Positions 1,105 through 25,704 of a stretch of 45,174 nucleotides of DNA are shown here, piece after piece. The DNA is from a virus (Duplodnaviria > Caudoviricetes). The notes under the pieces are model-generated. The model was not told the DNA's origin. It ran no database searches and worked only from the letters and a program-made list of their open reading frames with translations. Numbering within the stretch: position 1 is the first letter of the stretch; each line of letters opens with the position of its first letter. Location of the stretch: the IMG/VR virus record IMGVR_UViG_3300031450_000007, positions 1 to 45,174 of that record. One strand, written 5' to 3'. The position numbers were made by a program, and so were the translations under genes.

Positions 1105-1235
1105 CGGCGGGCTGAGGGTGGCGGGCATTGGATCGGTGGCTGACATACCCACTGTTATGGGGACGCGTGAGGGGCGCTACCCTGCGGCCATGCAACGCAC
1201 CGTCCCCCGACCCTCACCCCTTGCTAGGAGCCCTC

Positions 1236-1670
1236 GTGGCTGAGAAGAAGTCCCACAAGCTGCGCTGGGTCATCCTCGGCGTCGTCGCATTGATCGTCGT
1301 CATCATCATCGCGAGCAGCAGCGGCGGCAGTAAGGGCTCCTCGACCAGCAGTCCGACGGTTCAGTCCTCGACCGGCAGCAAGCCGCTGCAGCACGCCAGC
1401 GATGTCGCTGTCACCTCATGCGTCCCGGACTCGGGGGGCTTCGCCGCAGCGAAGGTGGTCGTGACGAACACGTCCAGCAAGGCGAGCAACTACGTCATCA
1501 CCGTCACCTTCGAGGCCGCCGGCGGTGCGACGCAGGTCGGGACGGGGTTGGCGTCGGTCAACGGGCTGCTGCCGGGGCAGAAGTCGGTGCCGCAGGACGT
1601 GTCGTCGCTGCAGACGGCGCCGGCCGGTTATACGTGCCGGGTGACGGACGCGACCCGCTACGCCGCCTGA
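1236..1670 (+). CDS. Membrane-anchored exported protein (FxLYD-like Ig fold); possible lysogenic conversion or superinfection exclusion
   Basis: AGGAG RBS then GTG at 1236; basic N-terminus, TM helix WVILGVVALIVVIIIA, Ser linker, beta-rich domain (VTNTSSKASNYVITVTF...LPGQ) with two Cys. Confidence 0.65.
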   Translation: MAEKKSHKLRWVILGVVALIVVIIIASSSGGSKGSSTSSPTVQSSTGSKPLQHASDVAVTSCVPDSGGFAAAKVVVTNTSSKASNYVITVTFEAAGGATQVGTGLASVNGLLPGQKSVPQDVSSLQTAPAGYTCRVTDATRYAA

Positions 1671-1686
1671 CCCGTAACGACGACAA

Positions 1687-1728
1687 GTGCCCCCGGTGCC
1701 CGACCCGAAGGTCAGACGCCGGGGGCGC
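1687..1728. terminator. GC-rich hairpin between convergent genes (probable bidirectional terminator)
   Basis: GCCCCCGGTG..GACC-CGAA-GGTC..CGCCGGGGGC between stops at 1670 (+) and 1747 (-). Confidence 0.65.
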
Positions 1729-1746
1729 TGTGTCGTGTGGTGAGGG

Positions 1747-2013
1747 TCAGGCGACGGGTAATCCGGTCGCCGGATCCACCGCAGGAGCCGCAGCAGGTGC
1801 GGGCGGGGCGTCGGCCGACTGGTCCGCGGACAGAGCCGCCTGCAGACGATCGTGCACGGCCTGCAGCGCCGCGACCGCACTGGCGACCTCTGCCGCTAGC
1901 CCGTCATGCGCAGCCGTCAGGTCGGCGTGCGCCGAGTCCTTACTCGCCAGCTCGGTGACGACGTTGTCGGCGAGCTGCTCCAGTGCGCTGGTGATGTCGG
2001 TCAGGGCGCTCAT
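1747..2013 (-). CDS. Small coiled-coil protein, end of lysis cassette
   Basis: Heptad-like Ala/Leu pattern; GGAGG RBS; ATGA overlap with upstream gene. Confidence 0.75.
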   Translation of the reverse strand: MSALTDITSALEQLADNVVTELASKDSAHADLTAAHDGLAAEVASAVAALQAVHDRLQAALSADQSADAPPAPAAAPAVDPATGLPVA

Positions 2014-2240
2014 GCGGTACCTCCAGGGTTGGGATCGGACGTGCTGGGTGTGTAGCTCCGGGCAGCGGACTGGCCGGCCGGACTGTTGGGGACCTGGAAC
2101 ACGCCGAACGCCCCGGCGGCAGCGACGGCGATGGCGGTGATGTTCGCGGCGGTGCCGTGCAGCACGCCGAGGGACAGCGCTTCCCCGGCGGCCGTGGCCG
2201 CTGCGACGGCGAACTTGCGGCAGGTGCCGAGGCGGCTCAT
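2010..2240 (-). CDS. Holin-like membrane protein
   Basis: 76 aa, two hydrophobic segments, RKF..A N-terminus and GVFQVPN ending typical of actinophage holins; follows endolysin. Confidence 0.7.
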   Translation of the reverse strand: MSRLGTCRKFAVAAATAAGEALSLGVLHGTAANITAIAVAAAGAFGVFQVPNSPAGQSAARSYTPSTSDPNPGGTA

Positions 2241-2241
2241 A

Positions 2242-3207
2242 TCAGAACCGCCGGGCGTTGAGCGCGGTCTGGATCGCGGCCCAGGTCTGCGGCCCCGGGT
2301 CGCCGTCAGGGGTTGCGCCGACGTGACGCTGCACCGCCGCCCACGTCACCAGCCCCGGCACACCGTCCTGAGCGACGCCGACCCGCTGCTGCACCCGCAT
2401 CCAGGTCGCAGGGCCGGGGATGCCGTCGACTGCGGCGCCGACAGCGCGCTGAACCGCCCCCCACGTCTCCTGGCCGGGGGAGCCGTCGACAGACAGCGGC
2501 AGGTCGCCCAGCAGATGCGTCGGCGGCTTAGGCGCCGGCGCCGGCGCCGGCCCGGGAGCAGGGGCGTTGCCATGCAGCCAGCCGCCCAGCGCCAGCACCG
2601 ACCCGCGACCGAAGTCGCCGTCGTCGGGGGTGCCGAGGGTGCGCTGCAACACCCGAACGTCACCGCCGAGCAGGTTGTACGCCCGGGTGACCAGCGCCAT
2701 GAAGGCGCCGATGGGGAAAGCCGGGCCCGGGTCGTGGTGGTCCGACTGTCCCCAGCAGAGGGAGACGTTGTTGTGTGACGTGACGCCTCGGCCGCCGGCG
2801 GCTAGCTGCCCGACTGTCAGCCACACCGGCGGCAGTCCGAAGCGGCGTAGTAACTCTGCGGTGCGGGCCGCGACGTTGCAGGTAGTCCGCTGGGCGTCCG
2901 AGTGGTTCCACTGATCTGGGTTGTACGACGCATAGCCGTCGCGCTCCTGCCCGACGCTGCCCTGGTTGGGCGGGGCGTGATACGCGACCTTGGAGTCCGG
3001 GACGCAGTGCTGCTCGTCGCCCTGGTCAGTGACGTAGCCAGCCGACCCGTAGTTGGGTGCCCGCCGGTTGGCGAAGTCCTGAGCGATGGAGAGGGCGGAC
3101 CCAACCTCGACCGGGAACTCCTCGTCGTGAATGACGACCCGGGTCACTGTGCCGTTCGGGTAGTCGCCGTAGGTGCCGGCGAGCAGGGTGACAGCAGGCT
3201 CGGACAT
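2242..3207 (-). CDS. Endolysin: N-acetylmuramoyl-L-alanine amidase (Amidase_2) with C-terminal peptidoglycan-binding repeats
   Basis: VVIHD, YHAPPN..SVGQE, TSH and DHHDPG Zn-amidase motifs; PA linker; repeated DGxPGxxTWxAVQ; AAGGAG RBS before ATG 3207. Confidence 0.9.
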   Translation of the reverse strand: MSEPAVTLLAGTYGDYPNGTVTRVVIHDEEFPVEVGSALSIAQDFANRRAPNYGSAGYVTDQGDEQHCVPDSKVAYHAPPNQGSVGQERDGYASYNPDQWNHSDAQRTTCNVAARTAELLRRFGLPPVWLTVGQLAAGGRGVTSHNNVSLCWGQSDHHDPGPAFPIGAFMALVTRAYNLLGGDVRVLQRTLGTPDDGDFGRGSVLALGGWLHGNAPAPGPAPAPAPKPPTHLLGDLPLSVDGSPGQETWGAVQRAVGAAVDGIPGPATWMRVQQRVGVAQDGVPGLVTWAAVQRHVGATPDGDPGPQTWAAIQTALNARRF

Positions 3208-3234
3208 GGCTGTTCTCCTTGCGGGCATAGCGAA

Positions 3235-3268
3235 GCACCCGCTCGGTTGGGCGGGTGCGGTAGTGCGG
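3235..3268 (-). terminator. Hairpin upstream of endolysin
   Basis: GCACCCGC...GCGGGTGC inverted repeat. Confidence 0.4.
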
Positions 3269-3319
3269 AAGGTCAGGGCAGGAGGGTCGCGGCGGTGACG
3301 ACGGCGGGGCGTCGCGTGG

Positions 3320-3868
3320 TCATCCGACCGTCACTCCCTGACCGCCGTCGGCGATGGTCCATTCAAGGTCGCCGGGGTCGACCCGGCCTGGCATCCGGCC
3401 GTCGGCGAACAGACGCACCCCGGCGTTGACGCACGCCTGGTCGACGAGCTGCGAGCAGATCAGCGCGTGCTCTTTGTCGACCTTGCGTTCGAGCCACTTC
3501 CACCGAAGCCCGAGGTCGGCGAGGCCGAGGGCCGCAATGTCGGTGAAGCCGTACGGCGTGCCGACCAGCCGCAGCGCCTCGTCGGCGATATGGGTGTTGG
3601 CATACGGGTCGAGGCTGTTGATGTGGGCGTACAGCCCGACGCCGTAGATCACCCGGTCGTTGTCCTGCTCCCGCTTGACGACCGCACCCTTGGCCTGCGC
3701 CTCGACGGTCCGTCCGTCGCCGAGGCAGACGCCGGCATGGTTCACACGTGATCTGGTGGCCGCACGGATGAGAGCGCTCATCCAACCGCCGGAACGGAGC
3801 ACGAAGATGGTTCCCGCTGGATGCGGCACGCTTCTCCAGTTGGCGCCCTGCCTCTCGACGCTGCTCAT
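3320..3868 (-). CDS. Permuted papain-like NlpC/P60 (YiiX/YaeF-type) amidase/peptidase
   Basis: His (NHAGV) precedes GTPY and Cys (LICSQLV), the permuted order; ATGA overlap at 3865-3868. Confidence 0.8.
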   Translation of the reverse strand: MSSVERQGANWRSVPHPAGTIFVLRSGGWMSALIRAATRSRVNHAGVCLGDGRTVEAQAKGAVVKREQDNDRVIYGVGLYAHINSLDPYANTHIADEALRLVGTPYGFTDIAALGLADLGLRWKWLERKVDKEHALICSQLVDQACVNAGVRLFADGRMPGRVDPGDLEWTIADGGQGVTVG

Positions 3869-4422
3869 GGGCACCTGAACGCACGGCCGTAGGCAACGAG
3901 GCTGTCCCGGCTGTGCTGCCCGTAGGCAGTCGCCGGCGCCGGCCCGGAGATGAACACCTTGACGAGGCCGCACGTCGCCGTCAGCTGCCTGTCAAGCTCG
4001 ACCCGCTTGGCCTGCTCGACCTTCGCGACCGCCGCCTCAGCCGCCCGCTGTACCTGCACGATCTGCTGCGTCTGCTGCTGCTGGGCCCGGGTCTGCTCGA
4101 CTTGCTTCTGATGGACGACGGCGAAGGCAACGCCCCCGGCGATGGTGGCGATGACGTCGGCGACCAGGCCCATGAACAGCAGCACCAGGGGGGATACGCG
4201 AGCCGCCCGGTCACTGAAGCGGACCCGGTGGCCCGGCCGGGACATGAGCGCCCACCGGGCGTGCAGCACCGTGACGGTGAGGGACACGGCGGTGACAGCG
4301 ATGCGCAGGATGGGCCGGCCGCCGTTCAGGTTGACGGCGATCGCGACCGCGAGCCCGCCGAGGGAGATCAGCAGATGGACGACGGACGGTGCGCGGGCCA
4401 TCCGTGCGTCGACCCGGTTCAC
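3865..4422 (-). CDS. Multi-pass membrane protein with C-terminal coiled coil (lysis region)
   Basis: Three hydrophobic segments, Gln-rich helix, two C-terminal Cys. Confidence 0.7.
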   Translation of the reverse strand: MNRVDARMARAPSVVHLLISLGGLAVAIAVNLNGGRPILRIAVTAVSLTVTVLHARWALMSRPGHRVRFSDRAARVSPLVLLFMGLVADVIATIAGGVAFAVVHQKQVEQTRAQQQQTQQIVQVQRAAEAAVAKVEQAKRVELDRQLTATCGLVKVFISGPAPATAYGQHSRDSLVAYGRAFRCP

Positions 4423-4766
4423 GGCCCGTCCTTTGGCTTGCTGTCCTTCTCGGCTTTGAGGCGGGCGATCTCCTGCAGCAGGTAGTGGGCGGTCTCGTCT
4501 TCGGTCCGCCCGGCCGGCGGGTCGTGCTCGACGTCAGGGGTCTGCTTGTTCTTCCACCGGGTGTAGCCACCGAGGGCCGCGAAGGAGGCGGCGAGCAGTG
4601 CTGCGATGCCGGACAGGACCGACCCGAAAGCGGACAGGGTTGTGGCGTCGAGGGCGAGGATGGTGACCGAACCGGCGGATATCAACGCTGCCACCCGTGG
4701 TCCGATGTGCGCCGCAATCACGGCTAAGGGATGCGGCATCAGGTTGGGGGTGGCGACCGTGGTCAC
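4419..4766 (-). CDS. Membrane protein, holin/antiholin-like
   Basis: Two hydrophobic segments and charged tail; GGAGG RBS; GTGA overlap. Confidence 0.65.
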   Translation of the reverse strand: MTTVATPNLMPHPLAVIAAHIGPRVAALISAGSVTILALDATTLSAFGSVLSGIAALLAASFAALGGYTRWKNKQTPDVEHDPPAGRTEDETAHYLLQEIARLKAEKDSKPKDGP

Positions 4767-4925
4767 CTACCGGCCCTCCGCACGCCCGGTGCCTGCAGGA
4801 TCATGGCCTCTCCGAGACGGCTTCTTGCATCATCGGATCGTCTCCTTCGGTTCGTGGACGAGCGGCAGGGTCAGGTCCGCAGCCTGGTGAGGAACGGGGC
4901 GGGCTGCGGTGTCGCGGATGGGCGG

Positions 4926-5336
4926 TCAGGAGGTGCGCGGGGTCACGCTCACCGTGTCGCCGTCGAGGACGGTGGCGGGTAGCCGGTCGTCCGGGGTCCG
5001 GCGGACGGTCACCGGCCCGGCGTGCAACGCCCCGGTGCCGTCGGCTGCGCCTATCGCGTCCTGCATCCGGTCGAACGTGCCCGCATCAACGCTGGCGGAC
5101 AGCCCGGCCGGGCTGACTGTGATGGTGGCGGCCATCTGCTCATCGCCGGTCAGCAGCATGTCGGTGAGGCCACGTACCGCAGCGGTCATGACCTCTCGCC
5201 CGGCGGCGTTACGAGCGTCGGGCAGCCGGTCGGCGAGGGCCTGCACCGCTTCGATGGTGAGCGGCTGGTGCCACACCCCGTCGGCGAAGAGCTGCAGCCG
5301 GCCGTCGTCGAGGACGGTCACGCTGAGATCGGGCAT
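4926..5336 (-). CDS. Hypothetical protein, tail-associated
   Basis: GGAGG RBS; high GC3; ends in ATVLDGDTVSVT, matching the upstream repeat unit. Confidence 0.7.
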   Translation of the reverse strand: MPDLSVTVLDDGRLQLFADGVWHQPLTIEAVQALADRLPDARNAAGREVMTAAVRGLTDMLLTGDEQMAATITVSPAGLSASVDAGTFDRMQDAIGAADGTGALHAGPVTVRRTPDDRLPATVLDGDTVSVTPRTS

Positions 5337-5349
5337 TGCGTCCTCCCGG

Positions 5350-7464
5350 TCAACGACGCTCGAGAGCCTGCAGGCGTCTATCCAGGCGGCGCAGGTTCCA
5401 CCGGGAGTGCGGCGGCGGCGCGCCCAGCGTCAAGCTGACAGTCGGCACCGACGACTCGTCCAACGCGACGGACAGTTCCTGCACCCGCAGCGTGCCGACC
5501 ACGTTGAGCCGGCCTTTCTGCACAGCCAGGGTGATCGGGTCACCGAGCCAGATGTGGTCGGGGCCTTGCCACACGCTGTCGGCGAGGGTCACCGTCCAGG
5601 ACGCAAGGACCAGCTGGCGGGCGGCGAGTTCGGCTTTGGCGCGGGCAGCGAGGGTGCCGGCGTTGACGATCGACGTGTCGCCGAACTGGGCGTCCCATCG
5701 GCCTTCGGGCCGGGTGGCGATGTCGGATGCTTCGACCCGGACGGCAGCGAGGGCGGTGTCGCCGGTGACTCGCAGCGCGTTGGCGTAGCCGGACGGGTCG
5801 GCGGTCCGGTTGAAGCTGGCGATGGCGCCGGGATGGTTGAGGACGACCCGCCGGTCGACGCCGCGGGCCGGGTAGTACACGTCGTAGCCGAGCCCGGTGG
5901 TGGGCCGCCGGTTGCCGTCGAGGACGACGCTGAAGTCATAGTCGAAGCCGTTGTCGACGGCGGAGAGCTGGTCGAGCGCTTCCCCGACCGACTTTCCCGG
6001 CTGGTAGTCGGTCCTGTCCCGCAGCACCCCGGTCGCCTGGCCGGCGCCGCGGACGATGCGCAAGTCGCCACCGGGCCGGGCTTGGGTCTGGCTGAGCACG
6101 TTCCAGCCGATCAGGGCCTGGTCGAGATTGAGCCAGGACAGAGTGTCGCCTTCGTAGAGCTGCCGGCGGCGCAGGATGTCCCGGTAGTCGACGGCGTTGA
6201 CCGTCGTCGAGTAGGCAGAACCGTCGCCAGTATCGCCGGTGGTGCCGACCCGGCCGCGGTAGACCGGCCGGCCTTTCCACAGCACCCACAGGTCTGAGAT
6301 CAGCTCGTGGATCTGGCCGGCTTCGGGTAGCTCACTGTCGATGGTGAAGGTGGCGTCGGAGTTGCCGGCCAGCCGCCAGGTGACCCGTCGGCTGGTGATC
6401 TGCGGCAGGACAGTGTCCGGTAGCCCTGTCCATGCTCCGACGGCGAAGGTCCAGTCGTCGGCGCCGCGTAGCGGGTCGGGGACGGCGAAGATCCGGTCGC
6501 GGGTGGTGAAGCCGGCGGTGAGCAGATCACCGTCGCCGAGGGTGGCGGTGAGGGTGAGCGCGGTGGCGAGTACCGCTATCGCCATGTCGCCGTCGGCCAC
6601 GGTTGCGGCGAGCGTGACTGCGGTGGCGAGCGTGACGGTGATCGAGTCGCCGTCGGGCAGGGTCGCGCTGAGCGACACCGAAGTGACCAGGGTGGCCGTG
6701 GCCGTGTCCCCGTCGAGCACGGTGACGGTGAGGGCGACGGCGGTTTGCAGGACTGCGGTCACCGCGTCGCTGTCGACCAGCGGCGCCGCGAGCACGGTGG
6801 CACTGACCAGCATGGCCGTAAAGGCGTCGCCGTCGGTCAGGGTGGCGCTCAGCGCGGCCGGGGTGCCGAGGGTGGCGGCCAGCAGGTCGGCGTCGGCAAC
6901 CGCAGCGGCGAGAGCCATCGCGCTGGCCAAGACCGCAGTCGGTGCGTCGCCGTCGACGACGGTGGCGACGATCCCGGGTGCGGTGGCTAGGGTCGCCGTG
7001 GCCGTGTCGCCGTCGAGGACGGTGGCGGTCAGGCCGGTGCCCGCAGTCGGGGTGGCGAGGACTGTGTCGGAGTCGAGGACTGCAGCGGCGAGCGCCGTCG
7101 CGCTGGTCGGCACGGCGGTGGCGGTGTCGCTGTCCCGGACGGTGGCGCTCAGCGCGGCCGGGGTGACCAGGGTGGCGGTAGCCGTGTCGGACTCGACCAG
7201 GGTGGCCGAGAGCGCAGTCGCGCTGACCGGGCTGGCCGTCGTCGTGTCACCGTCGAGCAGGGTGGCAGCCAGCGAGGTCGCGCTGACCAGCGTGGCGGTG
7301 GCCGTGTCGGCGTCGAGGACTACAGCGGTCAGCGCTACCGCGGTGGTCGGGCTGGCGGTGAACTGGTCGCCGTCGCTGACTGTCGCAGTGAGCGCACCCA
7401 GCGAGGCGCGTAGCCGTGTCGGCGCATTCCGCCGGGCGGGAAACCCCCTGCCGAAACGTGCCAT
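5350..7464 (-). CDS. Minor tail/baseplate-hub protein (ReqiPepy6 Gp37-like) with N-terminal 20-aa repeat array
   Basis: C-terminal ~370 aa resembles actinophage hub proteins (VYRGRV, EALDQLSAVDNGFDY, LGDPITL, LRVQELSV). Confidence 0.8.
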   Translation of the reverse strand: MARFGRGFPARRNAPTRLRASLGALTATVSDGDQFTASPTTAVALTAVVLDADTATATLVSATSLAATLLDGDTTTASPVSATALSATLVESDTATATLVTPAALSATVRDSDTATAVPTSATALAAAVLDSDTVLATPTAGTGLTATVLDGDTATATLATAPGIVATVVDGDAPTAVLASAMALAAAVADADLLAATLGTPAALSATLTDGDAFTAMLVSATVLAAPLVDSDAVTAVLQTAVALTVTVLDGDTATATLVTSVSLSATLPDGDSITVTLATAVTLAATVADGDMAIAVLATALTLTATLGDGDLLTAGFTTRDRIFAVPDPLRGADDWTFAVGAWTGLPDTVLPQITSRRVTWRLAGNSDATFTIDSELPEAGQIHELISDLWVLWKGRPVYRGRVGTTGDTGDGSAYSTTVNAVDYRDILRRRQLYEGDTLSWLNLDQALIGWNVLSQTQARPGGDLRIVRGAGQATGVLRDRTDYQPGKSVGEALDQLSAVDNGFDYDFSVVLDGNRRPTTGLGYDVYYPARGVDRRVVLNHPGAIASFNRTADPSGYANALRVTGDTALAAVRVEASDIATRPEGRWDAQFGDTSIVNAGTLAARAKAELAARQLVLASWTVTLADSVWQGPDHIWLGDPITLAVQKGRLNVVGTLRVQELSVALDESSVPTVSLTLGAPPPHSRWNLRRLDRRLQALERR
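6510..7400 (-). repeat. About 15 degenerate 60-bp (20-aa) tandem repeats, consensus LxATVxD[GS]DTATATLxTAxA
   Basis: DxD-type motif recurs every 20 aa (15 counted); column alignment visible in 60-nt lines. Confidence 0.92.
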
Positions 7465-7465
7465 C

Positions 7466-8185
7466 TCAGATCACGCTCGACCGGTTGACGGCCTGCAACA
7501 TCGGACGGGACTGGAACCGGAGGCTTGAGATGCCCGCGAGCTTGACGACGAGAACCATGCCGGACTGCTGGCCGTTATTACTACCGGTGAAGCTGCCACC
7601 CTCGGTTGCACCTGCCGCTGAGGACTTGTATGCGACGCAGGCGCCCTCGTAGTTCGCGGCATCACGCGAGGCGTTCGTGTCCTTCGTGAACCCGGTTGGG
7701 GGCGCGAGGGTTGCCGCCTCGCCCCAGTCGGTGTAAGCCGCCAGTGCGAGCTGGTTCGCAGCATGAGTCGCGAGCGTCGTGCCCGTGGGCGTCGTCGGCC
7801 CGGTCGCACTACCCGTTGCCGTCACGTCCAGGCACCCCGTACCAGCGGCCGTGCTCAGCCCGGAGAACTCGATGGTCGATGCGCCGAGCTGCAGCCCTGT
7901 CGCCGCCGGGGCTGTGCACGTCACCGTGTTCGCCCCTGTGCGGACGGCCACCGCCGAGTAGACCTGGCCCAGCTCGGTGCCGGACGGACTGGCCAGCAGC
8001 TGGGTGTACGTGTTGCCCTGAGAGTCGGTCGGCGTGTTGATGACCGCCGTGCCGGAGCCGACAGTCGACCCGACGACAACGAGAATCCGGTGGCCGGCCG
8101 TCACGCTGCCGGGAGACGCGACTGTCACCGACGTGACGCCGTTGCCGTCAACGGACGTCGCCGACTGGACGTAGGCCCATGCCAT
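7466..8185 (-). CDS. Putative virion/tail-tip beta-rich protein
   Basis: Thr/Gly/Ala/Ser-rich, beta-strand pattern, in the tail operon. Confidence 0.7.
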   Translation of the reverse strand: MAWAYVQSATSVDGNGVTSVTVASPGSVTAGHRILVVVGSTVGSGTAVINTPTDSQGNTYTQLLASPSGTELGQVYSAVAVRTGANTVTCTAPAATGLQLGASTIEFSGLSTAAGTGCLDVTATGSATGPTTPTGTTLATHAANQLALAAYTDWGEAATLAPPTGFTKDTNASRDAANYEGACVAYKSSAAGATEGGSFTGSNNGQQSGMVLVVKLAGISSLRFQSRPMLQAVNRSSVI

Positions 8186-8188
8186 CGG

Positions 8189-9241
8189 CTAGGCCAGGGC
8201 TGCGGCGCGGGCTTGGAAGCGGGCGAGAGAGTTCGGCGTCTGGTCGAAGGTGATGCCGCCCGCGGCGTTGATGTTGAAGTACGACAGGTACAGGGCACCA
8301 GCCTTGGCTGCCCAGTCGAACACGAGATCGATGTATTCGGGGAAGTCGCCGAGGCCCTGCAGGTCGGCCTGGCCAGGCTGCTTCACAGTCATGTTGCCCC
8401 ACTCGCCGAGCGCGACTGGCTTGCCCTGCGCCTTCGCGAACGCCGTGATCCGGTCGAGCTGCGACTGGACGAGGGCCAGCAGGTCAGCTTTCGCCGGGGC
8501 CGTGGTGCCCCACTTGGCGGCGTAGGCGTCGACGGCGACGACATCGACGTGCTGGGCGCCGGGCCAGAACGGGGCGGTGTCAGCGCCGTCGCTGTTCGGG
8601 CAGAACGTGAGCAGCAGCTTCTTAGTCGGCGCCGCCTTGGCGAACCCAGCACGGATAAGCGGGGCGGCGTGCTGCCAGCACTTGACGAACGCAGCCCGGT
8701 CGATGTTGTTCGCGTCGGGGTTCATGTTGAACTCCCACCACAGCCGGGCAGCCGTGGTTGCCGGGCTGACAGCGGCGAGGCCCGCGCCGAGCCCGCGGTA
8801 GGCGTCGTCACGCGTCCCGCTGGCACCCTCGGCGAGCAGGGCGTTCCAGCCGGCCGGTGGCGTGTTGTGCGGGATGAGCGGCACCCCGACATCAGCGATC
8901 CCGTCGGGGTGGGCGGCGACGAACCCTTTCAGGTCATCGCTGAAGGCGAGCCAGCGGGCGCCGGCCACGTCGTCCCAGGTCTCACGGTTCATCCACACAC
9001 CGACTACGTGGGGAGCCACGCTGGGGATGGCAGCGCCGGACCAGCCGACGAGCGGCTTTGCCTTAGGAGCCACGGGGGCCGGAGCAGGCGCAGGAACCGG
9101 AGCCGGCGCAGGGGTCGGCGCAGGGGCCGGAACGGGTGCGGGTGCTGGTGCCGACGCCGATATCGGAGTGAGCGCCGTGAGCCGCCGGTCGATGTCGTTG
9201 AGGATCGCGGTCAGCGTCGTCTTGCTTAGGTCGTACGGCAT
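8189..9241 (-). CDS. Glycoside hydrolase family 26-like protein with N-terminal helix and Pro-Ala linker
   Basis: RLWWEFN (acid/base Glu), WPGAQHVDVVAVDAY, GKPVALGEWG (nucleophile Glu); GAGG RBS before ATG 9241. Confidence 0.82.
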   Translation of the reverse strand: MPYDLSKTTLTAILNDIDRRLTALTPISASAPAPAPVPAPAPTPAPAPVPAPAPAPVAPKAKPLVGWSGAAIPSVAPHVVGVWMNRETWDDVAGARWLAFSDDLKGFVAAHPDGIADVGVPLIPHNTPPAGWNALLAEGASGTRDDAYRGLGAGLAAVSPATTAARLWWEFNMNPDANNIDRAAFVKCWQHAAPLIRAGFAKAAPTKKLLLTFCPNSDGADTAPFWPGAQHVDVVAVDAYAAKWGTTAPAKADLLALVQSQLDRITAFAKAQGKPVALGEWGNMTVKQPGQADLQGLGDFPEYIDLVFDWAAKAGALYLSYFNINAAGGITFDQTPNSLARFQARAAALA

Positions 9242-12151: not shown

Positions 12152-15100
12152 CTAGAACCCCCCGGCGAGCATCCGAAACTCGGACTTGCGAAGCTCGGCT
12201 TCGTAGTCGAGGCCGCTGGCAACGTGCATGTGCTCGACGTGCTGCAACGAGCCGAAGCGCTGGGGAGCGTCCGCGAGGCGGTGCAGCGCCTCGACGACGG
12301 AATGCAAGTCAGCGCCGTGACCGGTTCCCGGGCCGGCTGCGGGTAGCCGCATCGCCGCGGGCAGGCCAGCACGGTCCGCGCCGACAGCAAGACGCTTGAT
12401 GTCGGCCCACTGCGAATTGGTAAGAACCGCTTCGGGCTTTCCGCTCAAGTTCACGGCCCGTGTCATGCCGGGATGCAGCACTCCGCCGGTGTCGTAGCCG
12501 ACGTAACGGCCGGTGCCGTCGTGACGGCCGCCGCCCATCAGCATCCCGATGCCGTACGTCTTCACCGCGTAGTTGATGCCAGCGGCGACGTTCGCCAACG
12601 GGTCACGGAGGTTCCACGACGTCCCAGGCCAGTGATTCGCCGCGAACGTGCCGGGGATGAGCTGCATCAACCCTTGCGACGGCGTCCCCGCACGAGCGTT
12701 GGAGTTGCCGGTCAAGAAGACATGGTCGCCTTCACGCGCCGTCCACGATCCGAGGTCGGTGGTTACGCACCACACGTCCCCACGACCGACGGCTTCCTTC
12801 TGCAGCGTGGCGCCCGTAACGACAGGGGAATTGGCTCTCACGGTCGCTGTATCCGCCCAGTTCTCAGGCTGGTTGGTACGCCGGTCGGGGCAAGCCCTCG
12901 GACGGCGTCCCGAGAGGTAGACAGCAAGCGTGATGGCGTCGAGGACAGGGCCGACGCTCTGTGAGATGGAGACCTTGCCCCTCCTGTCCACCGACCCCTC
13001 GGCATCGATGACAGCCTCAAGCCAGGCGGCGCGCTGCTCGCTGTTCATGGCGAGTACCTGCACTTCAGCGTCACGCTTGGGGTGACCCGCACGGCGCAGA
13101 AGGTCTTGTGCGTAGCGGTAGTCGAGTCGGAACTGGTGCCGCGGTCCACAGGGCTGCTGCCCAGTCCGAGTCAGCCGGTCGTCGACGTAGTCGGCGTGTG
13201 GGAACTCGGCCATCAAGCGCCGCAGCTTCTCGACCATCTTCGGCTTCGACTGCGCGACGCTCATTGAGGGGCCGTACTTGCGTGTCTCGACGTGACCGTC
13301 GCCTGCGATCCAGCCAAGCAGAGCCGCTTCGGAGACTGAGATGTCGAGCGAGCCGGCGGTGTCTGCTCTAGCCGACAGCAAGAGTCGTGAACGGCTGTGG
13401 ACCTGCTCAGTTGTCGCCCACACCGGCTGCGTGCGGTACTCGGATCGGGTTGACCGCCCCTTCACTCCATGCACCTTTGCCAGGTGGATGCGGAGGCCGC
13501 CGACCATGGTTGCGCCGGTGCGGCGGACGCCCCGCGGCCACTCGCAGAGGGTGCAGGAGTCCGCTAGCGGCTCGACAGGGGTGGCGACGCGTGGTAAGTC
13601 GAGCCAACGGTGATTCGGCGTGGAGGTGACACTCCACCGGCTGTTGTGCATGCGGATGAGGGGTGCGTCAGCGTATTGGATTACGCGCCTGACGGGCGTC
13701 CATTCACTGCAACCGGTCGCGTGGTTGTAACCGATCGTTTCGTCCCCGACTTGAACCTCATCGTGCTTGAGCCACCCGCGCCGCGTAAGGATCATGTCGT
13801 CAACGGTGAGGCAGTCCCAGTTGTTCTGCGCGTTCGGGTTACCACCGGACTCGGACTGGATCAGCCTGAGCACCCCGCCAGCGGCTGACGCCGGCAGGTT
13901 CTCCATCTGCAGCGCCTGGTAGACGACGTTGGCCCAGTTGCCGTTGACTGCAGCCGCGGCGGACACAGTCGGCAGGTGGTCGACCAGCAGCCTCCGCACC
14001 GCTCCCGGCGTCTCCCAGACAGCCTCCTCGCGGACGTGCGACGACGGGTTCGGGTCGTCGATCATCCGACCGGCACCCTCGTAGATCCCCACGTGACCCG
14101 GGCCGGGGATGCCGCCTTCCCCATAGTTGGTGAACACCAGGTCACCGGGTAGGGCGTCCTTGTAGTTGATCGCCTGACCCATCTTGACCAGATCCCACGT
14201 CAGCGGCCGGCCCGGCAGTCGGTGACCAAGGTCGGCCATGACCCGGTCGACCAAACCGGAGCAGTCGGTGCCGGCGCCGCCGTAGGGGTTGCCGCCCAAG
14301 ACGTACTGCTGGCCCAAGTACTTGCGGGCCTGGTTGACGATGTCGGTGCCGTTGCCGACCTGGCTCATGAACCCGCCACCACCGGCCGCAGCCGCTGCAG
14401 CTGCAGCCTGAGCGGCGTTGTAGGCGTCGTCCTTGCCTTGAAGAAGTGCGAGCAGTGCGTCGCCGATGTTGTGGACCTCTTTGCCCATCCACCGGCCCGG
14501 CTCACCCATCCCCCTGAGCCCCCTGTCCGCGGCCCCCTCAATGGTGTGAACGACGGGGGCAGCTACAGCCGACAGCGCACCAAGCGCGAGATGCTTGAGG
14601 TCTTTCAGCAGATCGGTCGGGTGGAGAATGTCGTGGCCGAGCCGGCTGATGCCGCGGCCGATGGTGTCGAGTATTCCGCCGCCTCCGGCGTTGGTCGAAG
14701 CGATCCGTTTGGCGTCGGCGGCCGTGACGAACTGCCTGGCTGCGGCGATCCCGGGGGCGGCGTGTGCGACGTTACTGATGGTGTTGCTCAGGCCCGACAA
14801 GCCGGACAGGTTGGCCCCGGACAGGTTGAAGCCTGCCGGCAGCAGAGGGCCGCCGACCGCGTAATGCCCACCCGCGCCACCGGTACCGGTGAAGCCAAGT
14901 GCCCCCATCAGCGTGTCCGGGCCGCCGAACCGGGCGACGACCGGCTTCGGGACGACCAGCTCGCCGGGAGTGCCGTAGAACGGCACGTCGTCACGGTCGT
15001 GGTTGCCTGGGATAGGCCCCCCGCCGGCGAAGTGCAGCGGCGCGAGGTGCTGCATTCCCGGCTCGTGGAGGATGTCGCCGATGCCGTGGATCAGCGGAAC

Positions 15101-18100
15101 GATGCCCTGGTCGTACGGGACGTCGATCACCCAGCGAATCGGGCCAGCGACAATCTCCTTGACCCGGTCCCAGACGTGACCGACCTTGGTCACGAGGTCG
15201 TCGAAGATGCCCACTACGTCGTCACGCATGTGGCCGAAGAACCCGGTCACGTCATGCCACAAGTTGGACACTAGGCGTGACGCGTCGTGCCAGGTATTGG
15301 TCCAGCCGCGGACGAGCCGATCCCAGAAGGGACGCAGGATATTGTCGAAAACCCAGTTCGCTCCTCTGGTAAAGAAACCGCTCACGTCATCCCACATACG
15401 CGAGACGAAACCGGTTACGTCGTGCCAGGTATTGGTCCAGCCGCGGACGAGCCGGTTGAGGAACGGGCGCAGGATGTTGTCCCAGACCCAGCTCGCGCCA
15501 CGGCTGAAGAACCCCGTGATGTCGTCCCACATTCGGGATACCCATCCGGTCACGTCCCGCCACATCCGGGTGAAGAACCCGGTGACTGTCCGCCAGAGCC
15601 CGCTGGTCGTGTCCGATGTGGTCCGAGCCCCGGACGTGAAAAGGCCGGTCACGTCGCGCCACAATCTCGTGACAAGGCCGGAGACGGTCTGCCAACCCAC
15701 CCGGAAGAACAGGGTCGCGTCCCGCCACAGGCTGGTGACGATGCCGGTAACGGCGAGCGTTCCGACGTGGAAGAACCCGGTGACGTCGGCCCACATTCGC
15801 GACGTGAATGTGGATACGTCGTTCCACATACGTGTGAAGAATGCGCCGATCTGCTTGTGGAAATGCTCGACCACGACAATAACGAGACCGATAGGGCCGG
15901 TGAATAGAACGAGCAGCAGCCGCCAGTGCCTATCGACAAAATCGAGGATGCCGGTGACGACGTTTGATACGTCGGTCTTTATCCGCTCAAAGAACCCTGT
16001 CACGTCGTGCCAGATTCGGGCTGCGAAACCGGCGGTGTCCCTCCAGATGCGCTCAAAGAATCCGGTCACGTCCCGCCATAAGCGAGACGTGAACCCCGAA
16101 ACGTCATGCCACAGGCGCTCAAAGAATCCGGCGACGTCCTTCCAGATGCGCTGCGCGAAAGTAAGTACCGTGTTGAATGCCCCGGCGATGTCGTTTCCCA
16201 TGCGGACGAAGAACCGGCCGACGGCTCCGACAGCTCCGGCGACGTCGCGGAAGCCGATCATCATCCAGTGTCCGAAGTCCTTGGCCCACTGGATGATGTC
16301 GCCGCCCGCGTGGGAGAACCAGCGCCCGAGGGAATCCATGACATCGCGGAACGTCTTTGAGTGCTGGTAGGCGTAGATCATCCCGGCTGCGAGGGCGGCG
16401 ATGCCGACTACTACCAGCATGATCGGGTTCGCGTCCATGACGAGGTTGAAAGCGAGTTGTGCCGCTGCAGCGATCCGGGTCACGACCGTCCACGCCGCGG
16501 TCACTAGCTTCCACGTCGTCATCAGCCCGACGAAAGTGCCGACAGCCACCAGGACCGGCTCGAACCAGCCGCGGTACTGCGACAGCCACCGGCCGACCGG
16601 GGCGAGGGCTTCCGCGAACAAGCCCGCCGCCCGGGCGGCGAGGGTGAACGCGGCGACGAGGGGGGTCAGGAACGCGGCGACGAACGGGCCGAGGATCGGC
16701 AAGAACGCCTGGAAGCCTTCCCGCAGGTTGCGGAAGAACCGCATCACGCCGGGGCCCACCGAGGCCGCCCAGTCGAAAATGCGGTTGATTACTGGGGCCA
16801 TCGCGTCGCCGAACTTGGTCAGGTCATTGCGGATCGCGTTGGTGACTTCACGGATACGGAACGGCAAAGTCCGCTGAGTGATCCCGAAGGCTTCGTTGGC
16901 GCGGCCGACGCCGTCAGTGGCGTGCTCCACCCGGTTCAGGACATGGTTGTACGCCTCCTGCTGGGCGATGGACGTGCCCGTGATGTCACGCAGCGCACGC
17001 ACGTTCGGGAACAGCTGGAGCAGTGCCGCGTTCGATCCGTGGTTCGCCTTCGACCAGGCTTGCGTCCGGTTCGCGATGTCGTTGAGGGTGGCGTTGAGAC
17101 CCTTCTCCTGCATCTCCTTTCGCACGCTGGCGCTGCTTATGCCAACTTCCTTCATCGCTCCGGCGACCATCTTTGACGGGGCGTCCATCCGCCCGAGCGC
17201 CGTAATGACCGACTGCAGCGACGTAGCAGCTTGCGACGAGCTCATGCCGGTCTTCGTCATCGCAGCGATGTTCGCCACGACCTGCGGGAAAGAGACGTGC
17301 AGCGCAGCGGCGACACCCTGCACCCGGCCGAGGGAACGGGCCAGCTCGTCGACCGGCATGTGACCTTCGGTGACACCGGCAACGAGCATGTCCGTCGCGG
17401 CCTTCGCGGTCAGCCCCGTGCTCGAGTAGGCGTTCATCGAGCCGACGAGAAGCTGCGCAACGTCTTTCGTGTTGCCGAGACCCGTCGCGGCGGCGCGGGC
17501 GGTCATAGTCAGCGCATCCATCGCCCGGGAACCTCGCAGGCCACCGGACTCGATGAAGTACAGGGCGTCGGCTAGTTCTTTCGGTGCCCGTGCCGTAGAC
17601 CCGGACAGGTTCAGCACGTCCACACGGATCTTCTTGAAGTTCTCCCCGGACGAGTCGGTGAGTGCCTGCACCTTGGTCATCTCGCGGGTGTAGTCGGCGC
17701 TCATCTTCACGCCCTCGTACACGGCGCCAGCAAAAGCGAGGCCGAGGCCGAGGACGCCGAGCTTGGCGACTTGCAGGTAGCGGCCGAGGCGGCCTGCGTG
17801 CTCGCCGAGCAGGCTGTAGGACTCGGCGCCGACCCTGCCGAGCGCCCCCGTCTCAGCGCCTAGCGCCCGCGTCTCAGCGGCAACCTCGGCGACCTTGCGC
17901 TTCGCGGGTGCGGTGTCGGCGGTGACCCGGATGACCGCTTCGACACCAGCCGAAGCCCTCATGACGGCTGCGGTCAGCCGCTCACGAAAGCCAGCCATCT
18001 CCAGCTTGGGCTTGACCAGAAACTCGCCACCCGCTAGGGCAGTCTTCGCCCTGACTTCCTCCCGGAAGCCCACCATGTCCAACTTCGGCTTGACCAGGAA

Positions 18101-18760
18101 CTCACCACCGGCAGCAGCGGTTTTCGCCCTGACCTCTTGGCGGAACCCCGCCATGTCCAGGTGAGGCTTGACCAGGAACTCGCCAGCGGCAGCGGCCGTC
18201 TTGGCGCGCACCTCCTGACGGAAGCCGACCATGTCAAGCTTCGGCTTGACGAGGAACTCGCTGGCAGCGAGGGCCGTCTTAGCTCTGACTTCCTCCCTAA
18301 AGCCGGCCATGTCCAGCTTGGGGCGTACGAGGAACTCGCTACCCGCCATAGACGTCTTTGCCCGAACCTCTTCCCGGAATCCGATCATGTCGAGCTTGGG
18401 CTTCACGAGGAACTCGCTACCGGCAGCAGCTGTCTTCAGTCGGACTTCCTCCCGGAAACCGGCCATGTCCAGTTTCGGGCGTACGAGAAACTCGCCGCCC
18501 GCTGCCGCAGTCTTGGCCCGCACCTCTTCTCTGAAACCCGCCATGTCAAGCCGAGGCTTGACTAGAAACTCGCGGCTGCTACCCGCCATCTCGACGCGTA
18601 GCTGCTCCCGGAATCCGGCCATGTCCAGGTGGGGCCGGATTCCCGCCGTCCGGGAAACCTCGGCGACGTCAGCCTTGACCTGCGTTTCAAGGTCAGCCCG
18701 GAACCCCGCTAGCTGCGGGCGGATCCTCACGAAGGCCGAAGCCAGCTCGATTCCGGGCAC
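12152..18760 (-). CDS. Tape measure protein: 26-aa repeats, TP901-type core, Trp/Phe 11-aa repeats, NlpC/P60, intein-split lytic transglycosylase
   Basis: GGGAGG RBS plus GTG 18760 (PGIELASAFVRIRP); ANPIMLVV motif; DCSGLV/GHVGIY; ESGGNPNA...GLMQ. Confidence 0.95.
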   Translation of the reverse strand: MPGIELASAFVRIRPQLAGFRADLETQVKADVAEVSRTAGIRPHLDMAGFREQLRVEMAGSSREFLVKPRLDMAGFREEVRAKTAAAGGEFLVRPKLDMAGFREEVRLKTAAAGSEFLVKPKLDMIGFREEVRAKTSMAGSEFLVRPKLDMAGFREEVRAKTALAASEFLVKPKLDMVGFRQEVRAKTAAAAGEFLVKPHLDMAGFRQEVRAKTAAAGGEFLVKPKLDMVGFREEVRAKTALAGGEFLVKPKLEMAGFRERLTAAVMRASAGVEAVIRVTADTAPAKRKVAEVAAETRALGAETGALGRVGAESYSLLGEHAGRLGRYLQVAKLGVLGLGLAFAGAVYEGVKMSADYTREMTKVQALTDSSGENFKKIRVDVLNLSGSTARAPKELADALYFIESGGLRGSRAMDALTMTARAAATGLGNTKDVAQLLVGSMNAYSSTGLTAKAATDMLVAGVTEGHMPVDELARSLGRVQGVAAALHVSFPQVVANIAAMTKTGMSSSQAATSLQSVITALGRMDAPSKMVAGAMKEVGISSASVRKEMQEKGLNATLNDIANRTQAWSKANHGSNAALLQLFPNVRALRDITGTSIAQQEAYNHVLNRVEHATDGVGRANEAFGITQRTLPFRIREVTNAIRNDLTKFGDAMAPVINRIFDWAASVGPGVMRFFRNLREGFQAFLPILGPFVAAFLTPLVAAFTLAARAAGLFAEALAPVGRWLSQYRGWFEPVLVAVGTFVGLMTTWKLVTAAWTVVTRIAAAAQLAFNLVMDANPIMLVVVGIAALAAGMIYAYQHSKTFRDVMDSLGRWFSHAGGDIIQWAKDFGHWMMIGFRDVAGAVGAVGRFFVRMGNDIAGAFNTVLTFAQRIWKDVAGFFERLWHDVSGFTSRLWRDVTGFFERIWRDTAGFAARIWHDVTGFFERIKTDVSNVVTGILDFVDRHWRLLLVLFTGPIGLVIVVVEHFHKQIGAFFTRMWNDVSTFTSRMWADVTGFFHVGTLAVTGIVTSLWRDATLFFRVGWQTVSGLVTRLWRDVTGLFTSGARTTSDTTSGLWRTVTGFFTRMWRDVTGWVSRMWDDITGFFSRGASWVWDNILRPFLNRLVRGWTNTWHDVTGFVSRMWDDVSGFFTRGANWVFDNILRPFWDRLVRGWTNTWHDASRLVSNLWHDVTGFFGHMRDDVVGIFDDLVTKVGHVWDRVKEIVAGPIRWVIDVPYDQGIVPLIHGIGDILHEPGMQHLAPLHFAGGGPIPGNHDRDDVPFYGTPGELVVPKPVVARFGGPDTLMGALGFTGTGGAGGHYAVGGPLLPAGFNLSGANLSGLSGLSNTISNVAHAAPGIAAARQFVTAADAKRIASTNAGGGGILDTIGRGISRLGHDILHPTDLLKDLKHLALGALSAVAAPVVHTIEGAADRGLRGMGEPGRWMGKEVHNIGDALLALLQGKDDAYNAAQAAAAAAAAGGGGFMSQVGNGTDIVNQARKYLGQQYVLGGNPYGGAGTDCSGLVDRVMADLGHRLPGRPLTWDLVKMGQAINYKDALPGDLVFTNYGEGGIPGPGHVGIYEGAGRMIDDPNPSSHVREEAVWETPGAVRRLLVDHLPTVSAAAAVNGNWANVVYQALQMENLPASAAGGVLRLIQSESGGNPNAQNNWDCLTVDDMILTRRGWLKHDEVQVGDETIGYNHATGCSEWTPVRRVIQYADAPLIRMHNSRWSVTSTPNHRWLDLPRVATPVEPLADSCTLCEWPRGVRRTGATMVGGLRIHLAKVHGVKGRSTRSEYRTQPVWATTEQVHSRSRLLLSARADTAGSLDISVSEAALLGWIAGDGHVETRKYGPSMSVAQSKPKMVEKLRRLMAEFPHADYVDDRLTRTGQQPCGPRHQFRLDYRYAQDLLRRAGHPKRDAEVQVLAMNSEQRAAWLEAVIDAEGSVDRRGKVSISQSVGPVLDAITLAVYLSGRRPRACPDRRTNQPENWADTATVRANSPVVTGATLQKEAVGRGDVWCVTTDLGSWTAREGDHVFLTGNSNARAGTPSQGLMQLIPGTFAANHWPGTSWNLRDPLANVAAGINYAVKTYGIGMLMGGGRHDGTGRYVGYDTGGVLHPGMTRAVNLSGKPEAVLTNSQWADIKRLAVGADRAGLPAAMRLPAAGPGTGHGADLHSVVEALHRLADAPQRFGSLQHVEHMHVASGLDYEAELRKSEFRMLAGGF
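12704..13813 (-). mobile_element. Intein (370 aa) with LAGLIDADG homing endonuclease
   Basis: Block A CLTVDDMILTRRG; block B TPNHRW; LLGWIAGDG and LEAVIDAEG; block F DVWCV; terminal TGN followed by Ser; removal restores NNWD-SNARAGTPSQGLMQ. Confidence 0.93.
15150..16330 (-). repeat. Degenerate 11-aa Trp/Phe repeats of the tape measure (WxDVxGFFxRx)
   Basis: Recurrent WRDVTGFF, WHDVSGF and WDDVSGFF units. Confidence 0.85.
17980..18640 (-). repeat. About 9 tandem 78-bp (26-aa) repeats LDMAGFREEVRAKTAAAGGEFLVKPK
   Basis: Nine L[DE]MxGFR units counted in the translation. Confidence 0.92.
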
Positions 18761-18776
18761 GGCTCGCCTCCCAGAG

Positions 18777-19080
18777 TCAGAACTGCTCAAGCAGTGCAGC
18801 TAACGCTGCAAAGTCCGTAACCGCTTCCTCATCAAGCTCGTCCGGTGATGCCAAAGCGTCATCAAGGTCTTCCCTCGCGGTGGACTCTTGGCCGGCGGCG
18901 CGTGCCGCCGTGTCGACCGCGTCCGCCCGGTCAGCGAGCAGCGTGTAGGCGAAGTCGCAGACAGCGGCTCCGCTCATCCGCCGGATTACTTGCGGGCTAT
19001 GGCCTGCCGCGATGAGCCGGCCACGGACTTCGGCCCAGTTTTCGCCGGCCCAGGTGCAGAGGTCTCGGCCGGCTCCGTAG
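18777..19080 (-). CDS. Tail assembly chaperone, frameshift extension (gpT-like)
   Basis: -1 frame relative to upstream chaperone; PYGAGRDLCTWAGENWAEVRGRL...; no clear own start; lies just before tape measure. Confidence 0.6.
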
Positions 19081-22238: not shown

Positions 22239-22976
22239 TCAGCCGACCTTGCTCTCGAAAGCCGCGAGCCGGACTTCCAGGTCGCGGTTCTGGGATTCCA
22301 GGTCGTGGATGCGTTGCCGTGCGGCACGCCGACGGAAACTGCCTTCGTCCAGCGTGATCAACGTGTGCTCGCGCGCCGTCTTTACGGCGAGGTTCCCCGG
22401 CTGGTTGTCCGTCTTGATCCCGTTGACGTGGTGTACCTGGTCATCGGGGTCAAGCCGTCGGCCAAGGGTCTGCTCAACTACCCAACGGTGCTCGAACATC
22501 CGGCCGTTGCGGTACGCCGCCGGGTGGTCCGGTTCCCAGATGAGGACGTAACCGTCCTGGTTGATGACAGCCTCACGGCCGTTGTGGAACCGCCCGAGGC
22601 CGTTGCGAACCTGCCCGGCTTCTGAGCACCGCTTGGAGCAGTAGTGCCCGCTGCGGGCGACGGCTTCCCCGTGCTTACGGATAACCGAAGTACCGCAAAC
22701 CAAGCAGATGATGGTGACTCGCCGCCGCCGCTGCCACTCGTCGTAGCACGTCTTCGAGCAGAACCTTCCGACGTTGTTACTCGACAGCGGCCGGAAGGTC
22801 TTGTCGCATAGCTCGCATGCCTTGTCCGGGTGCCGCCGTGGTTTGCTGCCTAGCTTGCTCCGACAGGACTCGGAGCAGAAGAAGCGGCCAGTCCTGTTGC
22901 GATTGATCGTCGCCTGCGAGCGCATTACCGACGCGCCGCATGCTGCACACTCCCGAACCTCTTGCCTGTTCCGCAT
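22239..22976 (-). CDS. HNH homing endonuclease with three N-terminal Cys4 Zn-finger repeats
   Basis: CxxC...[FY]CSxxC three times; EHRWVVEQTLGR, VHHVNGIKTDNQPGNL. Confidence 0.88.
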   Translation of the reverse strand: MRNRQEVRECAACGASVMRSQATINRNRTGRFFCSESCRSKLGSKPRRHPDKACELCDKTFRPLSSNNVGRFCSKTCYDEWQRRRRVTIICLVCGTSVIRKHGEAVARSGHYCSKRCSEAGQVRNGLGRFHNGREAVINQDGYVLIWEPDHPAAYRNGRMFEHRWVVEQTLGRRLDPDDQVHHVNGIKTDNQPGNLAVKTAREHTLITLDEGSFRRRAARQRIHDLESQNRDLEVRLAAFESKVG

Positions 22977-22983
22977 TCCGTTG

Positions 22984-23027
22984 TCCTCTCCCGGTAGCAC
23001 CCTGCTTGCAATGCTACCGGGAGAGGA
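22984..23027 (-). promoter_or_regulatory. Perfect 16-bp inverted repeat covering the HNH RBS (may also act as post-capsid terminator)
   Basis: TCCTCTCCCGGTAGCA (22984-22999) / TGCTACCGGGAGAGGA (23012-23027), 12-nt loop. Confidence 0.8.
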
Positions 23028-25617: not shown

Positions 25618-25704
25618 TCAAACCGCCTGGCGGTGCTGGCAGTTGCAGACCTGCGACCCGTCGCAGTCCTCGTGCTCTCGGCGGCGGCAAGGCTGGCAGA
25701 TCAT
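25618..25704 (-). CDS. 28-aa Cys/His miniprotein
   Basis: MICQPCRRREHEDCDGSQVCNCQHRQAV; ATGA overlap with glycosyltransferase stop; GGGAG RBS. Confidence 0.6.
   Translation of the reverse strand: MICQPCRRREHEDCDGSQVCNCQHRQAV

Follow-up and report, generated by a model that had tools for sequence, protein, structure and literature searches.

Exteins of phage inteins have all been described as nucleic-acid-handling proteins, as have 84.9% of bacterial exteins (PMC5050341). Inteins such as PI-PfuI, TliVMA, and PI-SceI combine a Hint splicing fold with a two-motif LAGLIDADG endonuclease and reside in nucleotide-handling proteins. Class 3 (WCT) inteins, e.g. MP-Be DnaB, carry a Trp in block B (B12), a Cys in block F (F4), and a Thr in block G (G5), followed by Ser or Thr at position +1; they are defined by the lack of an N-terminal nucleophile, with Ser1 or Cys1 given for 3 of 37 WCT inteins (PMC2807308). 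The tape measure protein has been listed among new intein hosts, without domain detail, by Gosselin, Arsenault, and Gogarten (2025, bioRxiv 10.1101/2025.01.02.630785), in whose main text tape measure is named twice and the terms glycosylase, lysin, and peptidoglycan are absent. The same study describes an intein switch from terminase to Cas4, in which a common coding motif for nucleotide binding lets one intein change genes. Tape measure proteins with a wall-hydrolase domain at the C-terminus are known, e.g. TM4 Tmp with its motif 3, and domains of this type are uninterrupted there; such a hydrolase can be dispensable, yet aid infection of stationary cells (PMC1796659). Our literature search, which mostly covered papers available outside subscription, found no title or abstract describing inteins in SLT domains or WXG100 proteins.

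In this study, we analyzed an intein in the tape measure gene of a temperate phage whose 45-kb record includes genes for integrase, terminase, portal, capsid, tail, and endolysin. The whole stretch of 45,174 nucleotides is referred to as the window. Its longest gene, located on the minus strand between a tail tube gene and a Dit-like gene, encodes the tape measure protein (12152-18790; 2212 aa counted from the first TTG) and contains the PhageMin_Tail domain (PF10145; 17009-17620, minus strand; Pfam, 6e-26), as is typical of siphophage tape measures. Its C-terminal domains according to Pfam are an uninterrupted NlpC/P60 domain (14021-14314, minus strand; 5e-14) and an SLT domain. The N-terminus contains a 78-nt (26-aa) repeat in 8.3 copies (17981-18628).

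Further features were observed elsewhere in the window. The 969-aa portal protein (28650-31559, minus strand) is fused to peptidoglycan-binding and Mu F-like head morphogenesis domains, and its gene includes a perfect 9-nt repeat (29695-29744). A glycosyltransferase gene (25701-26768, minus strand) between the prohead protease and major capsid genes suggests virion glycosylation. There are two free-standing HNH endonuclease genes (22239-23000 and 44018-44566, both minus strand), the former with zinc-finger repeats and directly after the capsid gene. A 704-aa ORF (5350-7464, minus strand) without Pfam or PHROG match includes a 60-nt repeat that occurs about 10 times (6684-7350); it probably encodes a tail fibre.

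The SLT domain is interrupted. Its N-half (13814-13933, minus strand; assigned from sequence, site mapping, and model) includes the predicted catalytic Glu (13850-13852) and ends with the -1 Asp codon GAC (13814-13816); its C-half (12494-12703, minus strand; Pfam and model) starts with the +1 Ser, located 13 residues past the predicted catalytic Glu, and bears the GLMQ and AGINY motifs. Between them lies an insert of 370 aa (1110 nt; 12704-13813, minus strand), corresponding to residues 1660-2029 of the ORF, flanked by ESGGNPNAQNNWD and SNARAGTPSQGLMQ with the junction NNWD/SNAR. It runs from Cys1 to Gly-Asn and is followed by Ser, exactly with the ends given in a preliminary description of this DNA, which had been made from the letters alone and had interpreted the insert as an intein.

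For analysis of the splicing residues, we aligned 119 inteins, comprising that of the window and 118 of 120 listed matches, after two with unparsed ends had been dropped. Blocks and WCT positions follow the class 3 definition (PMC2807308). The block A nucleophile Cys1 (13811-13813), the three residues of the block B motif T65-x-x-H68-x-W70 (13604-13621), C349, and N370 are each invariant in 119/119, and T368 is found in 118/119; position +1 is Ser in 111 and Thr in 8. Blocks F and G (12704-12775) read V-W-C349...L-T368-G-N370, including the F4 Cys, the G5 Thr, and a penultimate Gly. The window thus has the residues of an intein, namely block A nucleophile, block B Thr and His, terminal Asn, and +1 Ser. 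The endonuclease is represented by LAGLIDADG motif 1, LGWIAGDG (13295-13318; motif, alignment, and Pfam), and motif 2, WLEAVIDAEG (12995-13024; motif and alignment), and the acidic residues D172 and E272 are both intact. All these features are on the minus strand.

Profile searches for Hint, LAGLIDADG, and SLT, as proposed in the preliminary description, bore out the latter two: the insert matched LAGLIDADG_3 (PF14528; Pfam, 4e-9) and the flanks SLT. No Hint family matched the insert among the Pfam models run on the ORF, and NCBIfam models gave zero matches to it. The Hint fold was detected by a profile match to the Spl DnaX intein (7cfv, E 1e-5) and in an AF2 model of the intein with both SLT halves (79 sequences; pLDDT 90, pTM 0.79). 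In a wide structure search of this model with VIA-align, the best matches were endonuclease-bearing inteins, i.e. the TliVMA intein (7qsu; Z 23.6, rmsd 4.5, 300 aligned) and PI-PfuI (Z 20.1, rmsd 4.0, 299 aligned); 6zgq (Z 18.9, rmsd 2.0, 148 aligned) and, for the LAGLIDADG fold, I-DmoI (Z 10.7, rmsd 3.1, 152 aligned) also matched. The Hint and two-motif LAGLIDADG architecture is thus shared with PI-PfuI, TliVMA, and PI-SceI (Z 20-24) at about 13% identity, but the hosts of the window's family are virion or predicted secreted enzymes and the window intein adds a zinc-finger-like insert.

This C2H2 zinc-finger-like insert, C87-x2-C90...H110-x4-H115 (13469-13555, minus strand), is found in most members, where it follows block B and precedes the endonuclease. 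A regular expression matched it in 85/119 members, and the four ligands are each kept in 92-94/119, at a spacing longer than in canonical C2H2. Profile matches were weak (ZFP57, E 0.12; zf-C2H2_6, E 0.005, the latter in the relative P0284), and the insert may bind zinc and DNA. In two metagenome runs (X1 and X2), a co-occurring intein allele has 22 nt in place of 163 nt (window 13435-13597), an in-frame loss of 47 codons by which the zinc-finger-like insert is gone.

With W70 (B12), C349 (F4), and T368 (G5), the WCT triplet is present. Class 3 demands that no N-terminal Cys, Ser, or Thr be present, whereas Cys1 was found in 119/119 here; therefore, we regard the family as a hybrid and did not file it as class 3. 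Its members also differ from class 3 by a terminal Gly-Asn in place of His-Asn and in their nearest hosts, wall hydrolases instead of helicases. Cys1 and WCT occur together in 227 of 230 inteins for which both ends and flanks could be parsed. Inteins with Cys1 or Ser1 plus WCT were reportedly the subject of work by Tori and Perler in 2011. The phage genome contains no second copy of the intein that we could find; 18 plasmid records match the SLT region in part, without any of them covering the intein; and no RNA datasets were among those listed as carrying the sequence.

The flanks of the AF2 model taken together resemble MltE (Z 9.8, rmsd 1.9, 77 aligned; model range 1-470) and Slt70 (Z 9.8, rmsd 2.4, 84 aligned). 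The catalytic Glu motif, the GLMQ and AGINY motifs, and the lysozyme-like fold agree with SLT (PF01464), and peptidoglycan cleavage is predicted. A PDB sequence search with the empty SLT domain gave nothing at E<=0.1. Excision of the insert was expected to restore a contiguous SLT motif, and this is what an intein-less homolog displays: the tape measure gene of a related phage (L004), one of seven loci found with the C-extein, has an empty site with contiguous NNWDSNAR. Its uninterrupted domain scores 8e-10 with the Pfam SLT model, compared with 8e-5 for the C-half of the window and no match for the N-half. DNA identity between L004 and the window is 87-100% in flanks of 15-120 nt. Judged from the sequence, it is reasonable that splicing would be required for an active, tail-compatible protein; since the SLT halves already pack around the insert in the AF2 precursor model, the fold as such may form without it.

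Empty alleles were also obtained from metagenomes. We checked four of nine listed rock-metagenome runs, belonging to four studies, and in 4/4 found contigs skipping exactly 1110 nt at the intein site. These contigs represent relatives and not the strain of the window, with 13 differences over 175 nt and 31 over 260 nt in X1 and X2. In both runs, from which the window itself may derive, they coexist with contigs identical to the window, and X4 contains a diverged occupied contig along with an empty one. The insertion is thus in frame and has precise empty alleles. On the basis of motifs, profile match, fold model, and these alleles, 12704-13813 is confirmed as an intein with a Hint fold and two intact LAGLIDADG motifs, for which splicing is predicted.

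To survey the family, 189 longer and 130 similar-length proteins were collected by protein searches, and the best 150 of 837 representatives at E<=1e-30 were examined. The resulting 230 parsed inteins are ranked by similarity to the query and do not represent a census. A lysozyme-like domain hosts 182 of them, whose insertion points map to 13 positions between Glu+1 and Glu+61, with two more lying beyond the profile, and the other 48 include NlpC/P60 sites and motifs that by eye are zinc-peptidase-like. The window's site holds 89 of the parsed inteins; among the 119 top longer matches (window counted), it is used by 80, in proteins of tape-measure length and in WXG100-SLT proteins. At every parsed site +1 is Ser, Thr, or Cys, which the parser required. 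Hosts of lower similarity comprise DNA polymerase A, thymidylate synthase, RtcB, DnaB, glycosyltransferase, and sigma-70 proteins, and the similarity-chosen homolog set overstates the specialisation of the clade on wall hydrolases. Unusual hosts of distant members (P0232, P0242, P0311, P0329, P0272) include sigma-70 region 2, RtcB, a group 1 glycosyltransferase, and a GH5 glycosidase.

Some SLT-like domains contain two family inteins (L068, ORF 720-9179; P0244; P0045), which are 33 residues apart in L068. In P0046, P0057, P0063, P0130, and P0135, inteins are inserted at AINL/SDSN, two codons upstream of D/SN, and nest among the D/SN inteins as if the site had shifted by 6 nt onto another Ser. 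The empty SLT domain matches 499 phage records at E<=1e-10. Intein trees were calculated with FastTree and, for 39 rows, with a quick IQ-TREE run; they are rooted at midpoints, so the direction of transfer is not set. A single clade of WXG100-type inteins was rejected (39 rows chosen after viewing the larger tree; 5 label changes; AU p 6e-111), from which we conclude that the lineage passed repeatedly from one gene type to the other. As the site is common to tape measures of phages and to WXG100-SLT genes on Pseudonocardiaceae chromosomes, the lineage likely crossed between phage and host several times, too. A common coding motif would let one intein change genes here just as in the terminase/Cas4 switch, but the motif belongs to a peptidoglycan-hydrolase domain and connects a phage tail gene with a chromosomal type VII substrate gene.

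The tape measure proteins gp18 of the Gordonia phages Mcklovin and Twinkle, which belong to the same host protein class, contain an insert of 352 aa with 33% identity to the window intein that shares Cys1, the WCT positions, and the +1 Ser and branches basally in the same intein tree. In Mcklovin (L002), the intein is located at 5001-6056, and that of Twinkle is 100% identical. Unlike the window's intein in SLT, it sits in the motif H/SDHVHW (HxDHVH-type), which is zinc-peptidase-like by eye without a Pfam match, and the SLT domain downstream is empty. Within the named phage collection, Mcklovin and Twinkle were the only ones with a tape-measure match among 50 of the 95 records listed for the window intein.

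A genome scan yielded 54 loci, mostly from Pseudonocardiaceae, where 23 of 401 sampled genomes match. For Amycolatopsis, represented by one genome per species and thus not by populations, the C-extein of the host gene was found in 146/147 genomes and the intein in 43/147. At two loci examined, the WXG100/SLT gene stands downstream of purD, a PPE-like gene, EspG, and a small ORF, with an aminotransferase gene after it; by this gene content, the locus is a predicted type VII substrate cluster and not a prophage, and its WXG100/SLT product is a candidate type VII-secreted muramidase of these soil bacteria. The cluster purD-PPE-EspG-small ORF-WXG100/SLT is conserved in Pseudonocardiaceae (L022, 8852-11422; L040, 6772-11344).

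From 150 listed matches in Amycolatopsis, 130 alleles were retrieved and 128 parsed, giving 85 empty and 43 occupied ones. On an extein tree of 125 rows, with 15 codons on each side of the site excluded, intein presence changes 30 times, compared with a mean of 35.3 (29-40) in 200 shuffles, i.e. occupancy is near random. The median dN/dS of 37 full-length copies is 0.21 for the endonuclease, 0.19 for the splicing domain, and 0.40 for the extein, and both LAGLIDADG motifs are lost in 3/42 copies; the endonuclease is under purifying selection in these Amycolatopsis relatives. Counting against selfish homing, synonymous distances of intein and extein correlate (Spearman 0.72), and thus much of the history in Amycolatopsis was vertical, with loss. 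A recent foreign origin was also considered from GC content and set aside as weakly indicated (GC3 0.77 for the intein, 0.82 for the exteins).

The codon before the site differs between empty and occupied alleles. The -1 Asp is encoded by GAT in 52/85 empty vs 7/43 occupied Amycolatopsis alleles, while GAT makes up 120/1294 (about 9%) of the Asp codons elsewhere in the empty genes. In 25 independent pairs, GAT was associated with the empty state 14.5 times, as against 1.1 times for the occupied one (median p 0.001), and position -1 was the sole signal among 23 codons in this paired test. Empty alleles near occupied ones have GAT in 37/48 vs 14/35 of the other empty alleles, comparisons that are not independent, and the GAT/GAC state changes 32 times on the extein tree. 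These patterns suggest that GAT at -1 is likely a silent escape from homing in Amycolatopsis, by which cutting would be reduced; the GAC found in 33/85 empty alleles and the GAT in 7/43 occupied ones count against it. In phages, empty alleles revealed no GAT excess (3/38 high-GC genes vs 56/492 background) in a viral set restricted to empty sites, 91 distinct ones from at least 122 loci, and an extension of the signal to phages was dropped. The -1 codon is GAC in L004 and, by joint overlap, in the co-occurring empty contigs.

We consider it likely that the intein behaves as a selfish homing element and is, for the phage itself, probably a near-neutral passenger. In the precursor, Cys1 or the Cys of block F would mediate splicing onto Ser+1, accompanied by cyclisation of Asn; this would restore the SLT lytic transglycosylase domain before tail assembly or secretion. 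The freed LAGLIDADG endonuclease would then cut the intein-free NNWD/SN coding site during co-infection or in lysogens, and repair of the cut empty allele would copy the intein in. As a tape-measure hydrolase can be dispensable yet helpful against stationary cells, such sites may stay conserved enough to serve as homing targets. The lineage likely moved to new Ser/Thr positions within the SLT domain, and in Amycolatopsis, where the intein is common, GAT before the site may lower the cutting of empty alleles.

The preliminary description instead proposed a post-translational gate on infectivity. In its broader form, a domesticated switch would gate virion assembly or wall lysis to the benefit of the phage by redox-, metal-, or temperature-tuned splicing, for which the zinc-finger-like insert or one of the cysteines (Cys1 or that of block F) could, for example, be responsible. 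Two Cys residues that could act as nucleophiles are conserved and one motif resembles a metal-binding site, which fits this proposal, as do a class 3 intein reported as oxidative stress sensor (PMC6195587) and the faster splicing that a penultimate Gly confers on a phage intein (PMC5050341). However, the site is empty in close relatives from the very samples that contain occupied alleles, presence is patchy and near random, speaking against fixation, the endonuclease is intact and selected, many sites and non-virion, non-phage genes are used, and the zinc finger is absent in 34/119 members by regular expression and replaced in frame in the co-occurring allele. The infectivity gate as described is therefore not supported, none of our data point to regulation, and we judge a domesticated switch in general improbable. 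A relic that does not splice or only cleaves, either tolerated in a dispensable SLT domain or acting as an autoprotease that releases the C-terminal part of the tape measure protein, would agree with the viability of TM4 without its tape-measure hydrolase motif (PMC1796659), with the second hydrolase NlpC/P60 in the same protein, and with the missing Pfam or NCBIfam Hint match. Yet Cys1, His68, Asn370, and the +1 Ser/Thr are each kept in 119/119, both SLT halves stay conserved, and every new site has Ser, Thr, or Cys at +1, albeit as the parser required; such a relic is very unlikely.

The main rival to silent escape leaves the intein selfish and concerns the GAT/GAC contrast alone. Flanking bases are co-converted during homing, so that in ancestrally GAT clades -1 could have been turned into the GAC of the donor; alternatively, the intein could have been precisely lost by recombination with GAT alleles. 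Occupied GAT alleles do exist (7/43) and phages lack the GAT excess, and this explanation deserves to be taken seriously even if we doubt it: it leaves unexplained why a codon used at about 9% makes up 61% at -1 and nowhere else, why its share is higher close to occupied alleles, and why it has switched 32 times along the tree, and neighbouring codons are without paired bias. Selfish homing with silent escape is consequently preferred for Amycolatopsis. That a hybrid class 1/3 lineage specialised on wall-hydrolase domains, bridged phages and chromosomes, and drove a recurring homing-blocking change from GAC to GAT in Amycolatopsis is a composite reading that we put forward tentatively, with belief and doubt nearly in balance.

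The novelty claimed initially for the tape measure protein as host is reduced by its listing (Gosselin et al. 2025); the type VII substrates as hosts and the codon signature, which could not be seen in the first description, raise it. Within the literature searched, we did not find in print the 13 positions in lysozyme-like domains, the sharing between phage tape measures and WXG100-SLT genes, the -1 GAT signature, or the combination of Cys1 and WCT in 227/230 inteins. The value of the finding is the family, with its targeting of wall hydrolases, its sharing between phages and chromosomes, its hybrid active site, and its candidate escape codon. Unlike the nucleic-acid-handling norm, the nearest members of the lineage crowd a wall-hydrolase domain of about 80 residues whose host proteins belong to virions or are predicted to be secreted; the window's insert escaped those Hint models of Pfam and NCBIfam that were tested. 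The shared site offers a concrete route for intein traffic between phages and their hosts, and the more than 200 inteins with Cys1 and WCT provide material on the relationship of class 1 and class 3 splicing. The 43 occupied and 85 empty alleles of one gene form a natural set in which one base predicts occupancy, and homing resistance is thereby testable with two oligonucleotide targets. If the escape is true, it would represent a natural, readable resistance to gene drive in bacteria.
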